Shown: positions 56,212 through 60,955 of the stretch, piece after piece
Numbering within the stretch: position 1 is the stretch's first letter
Layout: each line of letters starts with the position of its first letter
Assembly (NCBI GenBank): GCA_000934665.2
Contig: JYFJ02002200.1
Location: 1-61,536, forward strand
Reading direction: 5' to 3'
DNA length: 61,536 nucleotides
DNA from: Catajapyx aquilonaris
Lineage: Eukaryota
Translations under genes and position numbers: made by a program
The notes under the pieces: model-generated
Seen by the model: only the letters and a program-made list of their open reading frames with translations
Told to the model about the DNA's origin: nothing
The model's database searches: none

Positions 56212-59200
56212 TCATTGGAAATATGCTTCCTTAGGGATCTTCCCTTCCCGGTTGAGTTCAGAGAAGGCTAATTCCGCTCTGTTCAAATCCCACTGGTGGT
56301 CTTCCAGACACTTCCTGGACCAAGGGAACTTCATTCGGGACATGTTTGAAAGTGAGACGATCATCTTGTATTTCGTAGTGGAATCAGGCTCATTAGATGT
56401 GGATGCCATTTCTGGGAGGGAAGCCACGACTACTGATTTGACAAATGCCTCTGCCGGAATCTTCCCTTCCATCTGGAGTGAAAAGAAGCTTAATCCAGCT
56501 CTGTTGTAATCCCATAGATTATCTTCCAGGCATTTGAGTGACCAGTCTGTCTTCATTCCTGATTGCCTGGAAAATGATTCGATCATCTGTTGTTTGAATC
56601 TAGTTGCATCATCGGCTGGCCTACCAGCTGGAGATGCCACATCTCCGATGCTTTCACCTGCAACATAATTATTAAAAGTGAAATCAAATATGATGTACTT
56701 CAGCCACAGATTTCACATCATTAACTTATTGTAGCGGTGAGAGAGAGTGGGGGTTTGAGGCAGGGTATATGTTGAGACTCTGCAATGTTTCCAAAGTTAA
56801 AACAGCCATTGGAGCTCAAATATTGAAATGTGGTAGATTTCTAAACGTACTTTTTGTACCAATGTTATGCAATGTCCATTACTGAGTTGGCTATCACTGA
56901 CTAAGACTGACTGACAGAAAGCGACGAAGTTGTCAAGTGTAACATCCGACTGGAAGGGTTTTCATGTTGTGCAACAGGATTTTGTGATAAATTACCAAAT
57001 TCATTGACAGCACAGTATATTCAATGACAGTATATCAATATACACCTTTGAAAATTGGGTGCCACCTACCATTTCATAGAAACTGCAATTAAATTTACCG
57101 TACTGCACATTGCAATATATTGCAGTCTGGGGGCCATTAAAAACTTCTTCAGATAGATGATTTAAAACACACACATTAACGAGTTCTCTATCCCATTTTT
57201 GCAATTCTAGCTTTTCTAGCTTTTTCCATTCCCACTATCAGACACTGTTTCATAAAACTTCACGATATGTTTAGTACGGTATGTGTATAGTAAGGGAGAT
57301 CGAGGTATAGGTTGTAACACTTTTTAGGATATGGATTTTTAAATTCAGTTACATATGCATTTAGGCAATGGTTTATGGCATGGTGGAAATAAGGCAACAT
57401 TCCCAATAACATTCCTCCTTGTAAAATTAACATTAGAAAATCTTAAGATTAAAAATTGATAGATTTGTAAAGATTTTTCCAAGGCAAGGCAGTGTTACAA
57501 CCGACCCCATCATAGGGGCGGTTGTAACAGAGGGCAGGGTCGATTGCAACACTACCGGTATGCATTAAGGCAGTGTTTCCCAATTTCTGTCGTTGGCGAC
57601 CCCAAAAAATCGTATCGTAATATTTGCGACCCCCTATATTTCGATCCGCCAACATGAAAAGACAGGAAAACAGTGTAATGACCTTACCTTATATGGTCAT
57701 GATTTTCAAGAAAGATAGCATCATTTTGTGAAAATAATATATTTGTTACTCTCCCTCGCGACCCCAAATAATATTTTCGTGACCCCAAATGGCGTCGCGA
57801 GCCACAGTTTAGGAAGCATTGTCTTAAGGGGGAAATGAAATATGGAAGAACAGTTTGCACCCACTCATCTTCTCGACAATATTGTCTTATAGCCTACTTG
57901 ATCCACCTAGACTACTCTTTATCTCTCGATACGCTGGAACTTAATCAACAGATGAATATTAAACTTACAAGAAAATGGATTTTTAATTCATATAAATTTT
58001 CGACAAACTGGTTATAAGAGGCTTTATTGCACAAAATGATAACTATTTCGTCTCTCAATATCCTGTGAAATATATGTAGCTGTAACATCTGTACACAAAC
58101 TTGACCATTCCCTCATGGTTTTACCATGTTACAACTGATCACAAGGAAGCTGTTACAACCGTCCCAATTGTGTGTTGTCTTGTAGATATGCTTACTACTT
58201 TCTATCTGTGCACATGATTTGGTCATCCATACCATCAGTGCGATCCCACTAAAGGAATCTTTCTAGTGATTCCAAGGGCAATTCAAGGGGACCTCTACTA
58301 TCCCCATAATCCCTTGATTACAGCCATACACCCACAAAAGTTGGGAACACACCTTGATTTTTTTTTGTGGAATTATACGCGTATAGAAGAACAAAAAACA
58401 AAAAAGGAGTAGTCTAAGTTTTGCGAGGCTTAGAGGTCATACTGGCACACGTACTGTGTGAGTTTTAGATTCAGGGCCTTCTAAACGTATTTATTATTGA
58501 CGATGATACAACCGTACCCTGTTACAATCGTCCCCGATCTCCCTTAAGTGTAGTAAAAGAGGCAGTCTGCAGATTACTTACCTTGTTTGGCAGTAAATAC
58601 CCTTTCTTTGGAAAAATGCTAAATGGCAGAAGTGTCAAAGCCAGATAATTGGTATAATTAGTCACCTCAATACCTCATTCCAACTGAGGCAGAAGACCGG
58701 GGAAACATCACACTCACTATATCGCACCAAAAGCAAATTATCACTCAACCACTGCATATACTGCATATTACATATCACGGCATATTAGAAATCCATATCA
58801 ATAAAGACAGATGTGAGTCTGTCTGTCTTTCTGTCTGTCTTTCCATCTGTCTGTCTGTCCGCCCACCAATGCCATCTGTGGACGTATACTCCAACACCTT
58901 CAACCTCTCCCGCCTGTATAACCTCAACCGTCATTTGCCTGCCATTTGTGGTCCATCTGCTACACCTCCAACCTCTCCCGGCCTTCCTAATATAATTATA
59001 TCAATAAAGACAGATGTGAGTCTGTCTGTCATTCTGTCTGTGTTTCCATCTGTCTGTCTGTCCGCCCAATAATGCCATCTATGGATCTATACTCCAACAC
59101 CTTCAACCTCTCCCGCCTGTATAACCGCAACCGTCATTTGCCTGCCATTTGTGGTCCATCTCCAACACCTCCAACCTCTCCCGGCCTTCCTAATCTATCA

Positions 59201-60955
59201 ATAAAGACGGATGTGATTCTGTCTGTCTGTCTGTCCGTCCGGCCCGCCAACTATCTCATTCGCCTGCCGTCTGTGGTCCGCTTCCTGCACCTCCAACCTG
59301 TCCCGTCCTTCCGACCCGGCCACCTCCCGGACACTACCTCTACGTTCTTATCTTATCGCCTGCCGGGGCGTTTTGCAGGAGGTGCTCACCTGAGAGCGCC
59401 ATGAGACCTTTCACGGAGCATTTATGTGGCGACCCTACCGGCCCTATATGTGGGCCCAACGTGGACGCCCGACCATGTTAGGCCCCCCAATGTCGCGCTT
59501 CCCTTTTGTATACCTATAAAGTTCAGCGTAATCCGGTAGGGTCGCCACATAATAGCTCCGTGACAGGTCTCATGTCGCTCTCAGTCTGAGCACCTCCTGC
59601 AAAACGCCCCGGCAGGGGGTAGGTGGGAATGTTCAGACCTTAGTAGTCTATGACCATGGACCCGGCCTTCCTCAAAGTGTCATGGCGGCTCTCTGTGCGT
59701 GAAATTTTTTACGGGGCTACAGGTAGGTGTTATCCTTTCATTCATTTATTCCCGGGCAACGCGGGGTATCGCAGCTAGTAAATAATATGGAAGGTCGACA
59801 TCCTTTAACATTCCAATTGATTTGATGGATCGTGGTTCGCCTTCTGTGTGCCCATAATGGCCAAACAGGCAACCAATAGCAAATCGTCATTGATGGCTAA
59901 TATCAATCTTGTCACTTTCGACTTGTGCACATAAGAAACTCAGTGCTAGAAAACCACTAAGAAAACTCTGACTCACCTGTTTGTACAAACGGTATAGGGC
60001 TCGGGTTGGGCGTAGGGTCAGGTGTCTCAGGGGCACACTTAATTTCCATGACATGAGGAGGCGTGAGATCGACTCCATCTAGCCAAAAGAGACTAGGAAA
60101 CATCTTTCGCACTATGTTGACATACACAGTCTTGTTCTCGAACAGCTTGCACATCGGATTATTGTCGAGCCTCAACTCTAACAGGGGGAGGGAGGAGACG
60201 GCATCCAGTTTCTGCAGGTCTGCCAGTTGATTGTCGGACAAGATCAGGATCCTGAGATTGGGGGCCTTTGCGGTGAGCTGGCTAAAGAGGTCCAAGTTGG
60301 AGAGTGCGTTTTCCGACAGGTCCAAAGCCTTGGTTTGTGGAAAGCCCTCTCCTATGGTCTGGAGTACATGTGCTGCCACATTCGGACGGGTTAATGGTAC
60401 ATATGTGTCATGCAGCTCAGCATCACGATGGAAACTTTTCAGATCCAAATAATGGGTCTCAGGATTGTACCTAGTTGGAATGGAGTAGCAGAAAAGTTCA
60501 GCCTTGTAAATTCCAGAGCATACCTGAACTACGTATAAAATTGGTTTTAAAATATCGCAAAAGTAATTCAAGCATGTGCATGCACAACATTATTTTACAG
60601 GTAGGCTATATTCAATTAGTTGTTAGCATTTAGCAATTAGCATTTAATATCACCTGCGGGTCATCACATTCTTGATCCTCTCTTGGAGTTGCAACGTTAG
60701 CAAGATGGTTGGTGGTGGGGATGGCCTTACACTCAAATTCACCCTATTTCTAAATCCGACAGGGATACTCGGAATGTTGAGCTTGATCTCATTTGCAGCT
60801 ACAGAAGAATCTAGGTAGAAAACCGCGTTTGAGCCCTCCCACGAGAACCCCACTGGATGCAGGGGCAGGGACAGGGCAGCTTGCAGAGAATTAAGCAGCT
60901 TGGACATCTCCTGACCCACTGCATTATGGATGGTGACTTTGTGCCACACATATTC
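56212..60955 (-). CDS. NXF1: NXF1/TAP-family nuclear RNA export factor paralogue (RRM-LRR-UBA-UBA; 5' end unresolved)
   Basis: Exon 60955-60654 (WHKVTI...LHPVGFSWEGSNAVFYL, TAP RRM), exon 60470-59977 (RYNPETHYLDL...LDLSENAL...LELRLDNNP...FPSLFWLDGVDLTPP, TAP LRR) and exon 56657-56212 (two TAP-C copies: FSRQSGMKTDWSLKCLEDNLWDYNRA and WSRKCLEDHQWDLNRA). Phases 2 and 1 match; AATAAA on the minus strand at 56077-56082. The family is certain, orthology to NXF1 itself is not. Confidence 0.85.
57293..58544. mobile_element. Non-autonomous TIR element (pogo/Tc1-like, TA TSD) in the NXF intron
   Basis: TA|AGGGAGATCG.GG...TTGTAAC / GTTACAATCGTCCCCGATCTCCCT|TA, with internal GTTACAACC repeats. Confidence 0.7.
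57571..57821. mobile_element. hAT (Charlie-like) MITE nested in the previous element
   Basis: CAGTGTTTCCCAA / TTAGGAAGCATTG ends, GCGACCCC sub-terminal motifs, imperfect TSD CATTAAGG / TCTTAAGG. Confidence 0.65.
58792..59778 (+). mobile_element. Non-autonomous Helitron with a triplicated 5' module and an internal inverted repeat
   Basis: A|TCCATATCAATAAAG start repeated at ~58997 and ~59195; ~80-bp inverted arms at 59359-59616; 3' CCCGGGCAACGCGGGG...CTAG|T. Confidence 0.8.

Follow-up and report, generated by a model that had tools for sequence, protein, structure and literature searches.

The window examined here is a 61,536-nucleotide (nt) stretch of contig JYFJ02002200.1 from Catajapyx aquilonaris (assembly GCA_000934665.2). 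Near its end, on the minus strand, it contains the 3' part of a gene of the NXF family, i.e., a relative of the general RNA exporter NXF1, also named Tap. The visible part encodes an RRM, an LRR domain and two consecutive UBA domains of the TAP_C type; an NTF2-like (NTF2L) domain was not found in the window. On sequence grounds the architecture RRM-LRR-UBA-UBA without NTF2L is confirmed as a new variant within the NXF family, its activity being putative. The most likely reading, with a probability of roughly 40%, is a functional or recently functional NXF paralogue which would dock at the nuclear pore by two UBA pockets without NXT1.

Gene structure and domain content

The visible gene comprises three exons. 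These and the features belonging to them are as follows:

60955-60654, minus strand: exon A, RRM-like RNA-binding domain (Tap-RNA_bind); acceptor AG at 60957-60956 after a polypyrimidine tract, donor GT at 60653-60652
60471-60653, minus strand: intron 1, 183 nt, GT..AG, phase 2, derived from the exon bounds
60470-59977, minus strand: exon B, NXF-type LRR and Pro-rich tail; acceptor AG at 60472-60471, donor GT at 59976-59975
56658-59976, minus strand: intron 2, 3,319 nt, phase 1, with repeats and no NTF2-like coding remnant
56657-56212, minus strand: exon C, the terminal exon, in which each of the two UBA copies follows a linker and the stop comes last
56437-56595, minus strand: TAP-C/UBA copy 1 with C-terminal AFVK, 75.6 bits alone
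56374-56436, minus strand: inter-UBA linker, predicted to be disordered
56215-56373, minus strand: TAP-C/UBA copy 2, ending in EAYFQ followed by the stop, 63.6 bits alone
56077-56082, minus strand: AATAAA, a possible poly(A) signal 130 nt past the stop; weak evidence, as this hexamer is fairly frequent by chance in AT-rich DNA

At these bounds exons A, B and C amount to 1,242 nt, i.e., 413 codons plus stop, in frame on the minus strand; a scripted join, which carried three extra nt at the A/B junction, was free of internal stops. The junction peptides, read by hand from the sequence, are MTRR/YNPETH for A/B and FVQTG/ESIGD for B/C. A first-pass annotation of this stretch, made from the letters only, had joined the LRR exon with its donor at 59976 in phase 1 to the exon at 56657. 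The matching phases and the uninterrupted frame uphold this junction. Exon B ends with CAG/GTGAGT, a strong donor, approximately at the position where NTF2L starts in relatives. The acceptor of exon C reads TTGCAG/G (AG at 56659-56658) and its stop codon is TGA (56214-56212). Every visible splice site is GT-AG, and the marks of a pseudogene, i.e., frame disruption or lost splice sites, were not seen. Exon A opens at an acceptor; consequently, further 5' exons including the start codon, a nuclear localization signal (NLS) and the adaptor-binding region are positioned past the window end at 61536. Upstream of exon A up to this point neither an NXF-like open reading frame (ORF) nor a start codon was seen.

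Conceivably, such a layout could be an artefact of the assembly or of the gene model. NTF2L exons would then have been lost by a mis-join across repeats, or the RRM-LRR and the UBA exons would belong to separate transcripts. Intron 2 does harbour a tandem repeat with a further occurrence at 21 kb as well as a long hairpin, features which can cause mis-joins. Yet the gene region is free of gaps with zero N between 56000 and 61536, the phases of the exon B donor and the exon C acceptor match, and in the window no second homologous acceptor is available to the strong donor. Further, the two UBA copies are just 66.7% identical in DNA and, therefore, the tandem pair cannot be due to collapse or expansion during assembly. 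We consider an artefact to be very unlikely.

The domain assignments by Pfam are clear. Exon A corresponds to Tap-RNA_bind (PF09162; E 1.3e-11, 44.7 bits at a cut-off of 24, profile positions 1-79 of 80), exon B to LRR_NXF1-5 (PF24048; E 1.5e-29, 102.9 bits at a cut-off of 30.5, profile positions 9-142 of 142), and exon C to TAP_C in two stretches (E 3.3e-39). When the TAP_C copies are scanned singly, copy 1 scores 75.6 and copy 2 63.6 bits at a cut-off of 21.3. The single TAP_C domains of 67 relatives range from 51.7 to 86.1 bits. As copy 2 falls within this range it is a TAP_C domain of ordinary quality. Both copies carry the signature W-S-x-K-C-L-x-D-x-x-W-D-x-x-R-A. The first-pass annotation had seen two tandem TAP-C/UBA domains with a WS.KCL.D..WD..RA core, and had seen copy 1 close with AFVK while the frame continues beyond; both observations are correct.

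Copy 1 aligns without a gap to the UBA domain of human Tap (1go5/1oai; E ~4e-15). An AlphaFold2 prediction of exon C, based on a 28-row alignment, has a mean predicted local distance difference test value (pLDDT) of 87. Both UBA folds are predicted with confidence (~96), and residues 71-90 of the linker are at ~60. The predicted template-modelling score (pTM) is 0.45, which together with the low-confidence linker points to two independent UBA domains on a flexible tether. The top PDB match by Foldseek is 1oai, the complex of the human Tap UBA with an FxFG peptide (TM 0.87 on the target), followed by the UBA domains of Chaetomium Mex67 and Drosophila Nxf2.

Two UBA copies and the missing NTF2-like domain

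The UBA cores were compared over 51 codons each (56595-56443 and 56373-56221). They are 59% identical in amino acids (aa), 66.7% in nt, and 57% at third codon positions. Nonsynonymous (dN) and synonymous (dS) divergence are 0.34 and 1.14 according to NG86, and 0.32 and 0.79 according to LWL85. A codon bootstrap of the ratio omega gave a median of 0.30 with a 2.5-97.5% range of 0.11-0.71. A value of 1 was reached in 0 of 925 computable replicates; 75 of the 1,000 replicates were dropped for saturated dS. The comparison of dN and dS on both UBA copies, proposed by the first-pass annotation, thus came out as purifying selection. Conserved and variable columns were defined against 170 single-domain relatives. 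Of 27 family-conserved columns the two copies disagree at 6, and of 27 variable ones at 18 (Fisher p 0.002). With an omega of 0.30 and with differences that avoid conserved columns, one can conclude that both UBA copies were retained under purifying selection and that selection acted on the duplicated form over a long period. The family consensus is kept at 24 of the 27 conserved columns in copy 1 and at 19 of 27 in copy 2. Copy 2 has, for instance, R in place of G in S-G-M, L in place of F, H in place of N ahead of W-D, and Y in place of F towards its end.

Among 22 units compared, the nearest one to copy 2 is copy 1. The linkers which precede each UBA copy are weakly similar, the score being reached in 29 of 2,000 shuffles. 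The pair reads as an old tandem duplication of ~220 nt, linker plus UBA, within the terminal exon, whereby the old AFVK C-terminus would have turned into an internal linker.

The absence of NTF2L was examined by three procedures. A tblastn search of the window with four NTF2L-bearing NXF proteins (including P0001, 68% identical to copy 1) matched only the RRM, LRR and UBA exons. The NTF2 family was not detected by Pfam at E up to 10 in any of the 66 minus-strand ORFs of at least 20 aa in intron 2. Finally, a local hidden Markov model (HMM), built from 37 NTF2L domains and run with filters off, was applied to 2,982 six-frame ORFs of at least 12 aa from the whole window. The best E value, 3.1, came from a plus-strand ORF which belongs to an unrelated acidic gene. 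To control for sensitivity, four held-out NXFs, among them a nematode protein, were cut into pieces of 25 and 40 residues, and these were scored in the same database. The best 45 listed control matches were 24 40-residue and 21 25-residue pieces with E values from 2e-14 to 2.6, and all of these scored above the best window ORF. Thus, exon-sized remnants of NTF2L would be detected; micro-exons of <12 aa or an unrecognisably divergent domain would escape. The claim of the first-pass annotation that intron 2 contains no NTF2-like coding sequence is borne out by all three procedures, including the HMM search of the intron frames which it had suggested. The loss of NTF2L preserved the frame, phase 1 to phase 1. 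By inference, a random deletion between introns would keep the frame about one time in three.

Relatives were collected by a HMMER search with exon C against the full protein library, which gave 254 matches at E <= 0.001; 150 of these were listed, and 178 relatives in all were stored. Pfam domains were obtained for 83 of the 150 listed relatives, and the other 66 were characterized by local HMMs, which were also run on all 178 stored sequences. The best exon C match among those listed is P0005, a protein of 289 aa from an ENA metagenome assembly. Its alignment spans both window copies (residues 22-146, E 2.6e-36, 40% identity). According to Pfam it consists of four TAP_C domains and no other NXF domain. 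At least two TAP_C domains, 2-4 copies, are present in eight of the 178 stored relatives, P0005, P0006, P0007, P0012, P0034, P0082, P0115, and P0146, with four copies each in P0005 and P0012 and two each in P0034 and P0082. Several of these proteins are short fragments. NTF2L was detected by the local HMM in none of the eight, and no NXF RRM or LRR showed up in them; P0034 has a weak hint of RRM_9 (E 0.012). P0012, P0034, and P0082 give the impression of being fungal. P0012 (603 aa) has sub-threshold matches to 2EXR/DUF7730 at its N-terminus. TAP_C arrays without NXF RRM, LRR and NTF2L may represent an undescribed class of proteins.

The RRM exon of the window matches 39 and the LRR exon 79 of the 178 stored relatives, and NTF2L is present in every one of them. 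Therefore, RRM-LRR-UBA-UBA is without a counterpart among the retrieved relatives. The UBA duplication in the window looks independent of the other multi-TAP_C proteins because copy 2 is closest to copy 1. The best stored relative of exon B is P0084 (46% identity), and copy 1 is 62-65% identical to the UBA domains of NXF proteins with an NTF2L-UBA layout (P0001, P0002, P0008). A word-indexed search of longer proteins returned four matches for exon C, all with NTF2L, and for the LRR exon none of 736 candidates at E <= 0.001. P0005 as a query retrieved itself and 28 single-UBA NXFs. Scanning metagenomes with a single-protein query gave no match; with a narrow alignment one locus was found (L001), a fragment with a canonical NTF2L and one UBA. 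The ESM Atlas yielded weak leads only, with a best score of 0.81 (YccJ, generic UBA clusters). In the open-access literature searched, queries for a natural NXF that has a doubled UBA or lacks NTF2L gave just engineered constructs or unrelated papers.

These data bear upon the question of whether the locus is a non-functional relic, i.e., a partial or rearranged NXF duplicate from which the NTF2L exons were deleted, maybe with repeat insertions, and in which open frames persist because death was recent. Such a view is favored by the fact that all 39 RRM-matching and all 79 LRR-matching relatives possess NTF2L, by the divergence of RRM and LRR, by the repeat-laden intron 2 and a mariner-like HTH fragment just upstream, and by the lack of a visible start codon in the window. 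It is difficult to reconcile with 413 codons without stop or frameshift, with four visible canonical splice sites, with the in-frame loss of NTF2L, and with an omega of 0.30 for a UBA pair whose substitutions avoid conserved columns. On balance a relic is somewhat doubtful, although it is to be taken seriously.

Both UBA copies retain the W and the D of the N-W-D loop; presumably these residues matter for the binding of nucleoporins. In human Tap, A602 has a small side chain by which FxFG can be accommodated, and in the Drosophila Nxf2 UBA a bulky Leu at this position together with a salt bridge closes the pocket such that phenylalanine-glycine (FG) repeats are not bound, as stated in a preprint (bioRxiv 10.1101/608273). 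According to the gap-free alignment with 1go5, copy 1 has Ser and copy 2 has Ala as the residue equivalent to A602. This mapping takes the 69-residue 1go5 chain as Tap 551-619, by its length match to the Tap (551-619) construct (PMC4330393). The W-D loop and the small residue at the A602 position thus are residue-level hints that both UBA copies may bind FG.

A functional protein need not be an exporter. The UBA pair may serve protein binding or pore docking, possibly in RNA retention or localisation, in competition with NXF1 at FG repeats, or in interactions with a lineage-specific partner. NXF paralogues were repeatedly repurposed: the Drosophila Nxf2 UBA binds Panoramix, not FG repeats, and Nxf2 blocks Nxf1 (10.1101/608273). 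In addition, copy 2 is non-consensus at 8 of 27 conserved columns, and the multi-TAP_C proteins devoid of RRM, LRR and NTF2L demonstrate TAP_C arrays outside of the classical exporter layout. Conversely, the W-D loop and the small A602-position residue are present in both copies, unlike the closed pocket of Nxf2, and copy 1 is 62-65% identical to the UBA domains of the NTF2L-UBA proteins P0001, P0002, and P0008. A functional non-exporter appears quite unlikely to us.

For the preferred reading, a paralogue docking at the pore by two UBA pockets, we propose the following mechanism. The 413 codons seen would be the 3' part of an NXF paralogue which is divergent and lineage-specific, which lost its NTF2-like exons and in whose terminal exon ~220 nt, linker plus UBA, were duplicated in tandem. 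The RRM-LRR module would bind RNA or adaptors, and the UBA domains, connected by a flexible linker of ~20 residues, would each provide one FG-nucleoporin pocket. Together, two pockets could satisfy the need for two FG sites and permit passage through the pore without NTF2L:NXT1, on the model of the engineered Tap 2xUBA. An activity weaker or more specialised than that of NXF1 is expected, since NTF2L takes part in RNA binding, too. Expression, FG binding, export activity and NXT1 independence of the gene are putative. The cofactor-independent or specialised germline export route put forward by the first-pass annotation is speculative; in its favour are the selective retention of both UBA copies after an old duplication and the small residue which both carry at the A602 position.

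Several points weigh against this proposal. The RRM and LRR scores of 44.7 and 102.9 bits are below those of most canonical relatives (RRM mostly 63-102, LRR mostly 113-195 bits), and copy 2 is off consensus at eight conserved columns. The selection signal of the UBA pair covers the time since the duplication rather than the present, and it gives no date for the loss of NTF2L; this loss could have been a recent, inactivating event. A close orthologue was not found in the searches of the protein library and of metagenomes. The repeat-bearing intron 2 fits a rearranged locus. The 5' end with start codon, NLS and adaptor-binding region is outside of the window. The engineered 2xUBA Tap has only ~50% of the activity in constitutive transport element (CTE) export, and NTF2L has a role in RNA binding (PMC4330393). 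Last, the UBA domain of an NXF paralogue can turn to protein binding, as the example of Nxf2 and Panoramix suggests.

Intron 2 and neighbouring features

Three features were located in intron 2:

58795-59239, minus-strand gene, intron 2: 203-bp tandem repeat, 2.2 copies, also matching 21044-21369
59354-59621, minus-strand gene, intron 2: hairpin of ~268 nt with arms at 59354-59441 and 59533-59621
57496-57530 and 58150-58184, minus-strand gene, intron 2: a pair resembling terminal inverted repeats (TIRs)

The ~200-bp repeat contains (GTCT)n and is present in intron 2 and 37 kb away at 21044-21369 with 81-87% identity. It therefore is an unclassified dispersed element. In the near-perfect hairpin, arm segments of 52 and 35 nt, which are 92% and 94% complementary, respectively, flank a centre of 91 nt, without an Rfam match; it looks like a foldback element or a miniature inverted-repeat transposable element (MITE). 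According to the first-pass annotation intron 2 is mostly transposon. The repeats, the hairpin and the TIR-like pair agree with this; however, of the 3,319 nt of the intron just 497 have a second match within the window (21044-21369), and a transposase domain was not seen in minus-strand ORFs of intron 2. The description is plausible, yet just partly demonstrated. If intron 2 is retained, the frame closes six codons beyond the LRR exon donor (59976-59957, minus strand), which would result in an RRM-LRR-only product. A correspondence of intron 2 to mammalian intron 10 with a CTE was considered and dropped: positional homology is not established and an Rfam match is lacking. Rfam had no match at E <= 0.1 between 55500 and 61536, and the window contains no tRNA.

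Tail-to-tail with the NXF-like gene, 2,700 codons form one uninterrupted open frame (43777-51879, plus strand), with 43219-43776 (plus strand) just upstream. Ser, Asp, Glu, Gly and Lys are extremely abundant in it, and it has long imperfect repeats with units such as SGSDEDCKSD and ECSDEE. Two parts of it, 960-1,000 residues each, matched no Pfam family at E <= 0.001. Further upstream, a WAP four-disulfide-core domain is encoded at 40344-40697 (plus strand; PF00095, E 4.6e-07). Nearby, at 38806-39183 and 39382-40119 (both plus strand), are a Cys-rich ORF and a Lys/Asp/Gly repeat ORF with GGKDKDKD units, neither with a Pfam match. These three ORFs may be exons of a gene for a secreted protein upstream of the acidic giant exon. 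At 61346-61534 (plus strand), ~400 nt upstream of exon A and on the opposite strand, a fragment which resembles the HTH_48 domain of the Mos1/mariner transposase runs off the window (23.1 bits, slightly below the cut-off of 24.1). The window has eight N in total, at ~1100 and ~6000, small assembly gaps far from the NXF gene; in the ORFs around 1000-1368 and 5833-6270 they appear as X.

Comparison with known NXF systems

The two-FG-site rule for NXF export, with p15 as such being dispensable, rests on engineered Tap derivatives. If natural and selected, an RRM-LRR-UBA-UBA protein would put this rule to a test in nature. It would show which functions of NTF2L, NXT1 binding and an extra RNA-binding surface, are dispensable, and the known ways in which NXF paralogues become specialised would be extended by another one. 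A dead gene, in contrast, would be just one more decayed NXF duplicate. Going further, the gene might be the independently evolved natural counterpart of the exporter engineered in 2002, i.e., a monomeric NXF passing the pore by means of its two UBA pockets and independent of NXT1/p15, and TAP_C arrays such as P0005 would then point to a wider, undescribed class of multivalent FG-binding proteins. This far-reaching extension we consider unlikely.

The window gene shares with NXF1/TAP (Mex67) the Tap-RNA_bind domain, the NXF-type LRR and TAP_C in the same order. NXF1/TAP, however, is RRM-LRR-NTF2L-UBA and forms a heterodimer with NXT1/p15, whereas the window gene is without NTF2L and, therefore, without a platform for NXT1 and without the NTF2L FG site. 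In addition, it has a second UBA, and its RRM and LRR are divergent.

NXF paralogues which were repurposed are a second point of reference; Nxf3 and mouse NXF7 are named here beside Drosophila Nxf2. Like Nxf2, the window gene is a divergent, lineage-specific relative of the general exporter with an altered domain function (10.1101/608273). The alteration itself is the reverse: Nxf2 keeps its NTF2 domain and Nxt1 binding and alters the UBA, the window gene does the opposite. A natural NXF product without NTF2L exists in mammals. The short Nxf1 (sNxf1) arises by retention of intron 10 and is an RRM-LRR product serving as an Nxf1 cofactor (PMC5170612). Retention of intron 2 would likewise stop after the LRR. 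Unlike the spliced window gene, sNxf1 is without any UBA and acts as a cofactor of Nxf1.

Tandem TAP_C domains without an NTF2L match are also the hallmark of the eight unnamed multi-TAP_C proteins retrieved with exon C. In contrast to them, the window gene has an NXF RRM and LRR.

A laboratory construct is a further point of comparison. In 2002, Braun et al. reportedly observed that an engineered Tap 2xUBA exports without p15. By domain content alone the window gene has the same layout, i.e., two UBA modules, no NTF2L, and a preserved RRM-LRR. Two Tap papers state that NTF2L and UBA contribute one FG site each and that both are required for export, that Tap derivatives in which either UBA or NTF2L is present twice are less efficient exporters than the wild type, 2xUBA being ~50% lower in CTE export, and that NTF2L has an RNA-binding activity of its own (PMC4330393, PMC4488659). 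Hence, the statement of the first-pass annotation that a two-UBA Tap exports RNA without p15 is correct in essence; it is overstated in view of the reduced CTE activity and of RNA binding by NTF2L. In both proteins a second UBA takes the place of NTF2L, and two candidate FG sites would be available without p15. The difference is that the engineered protein has about half of the activity in CTE export, and that the window gene is natural, its UBA copies having diverged to 59% identity.

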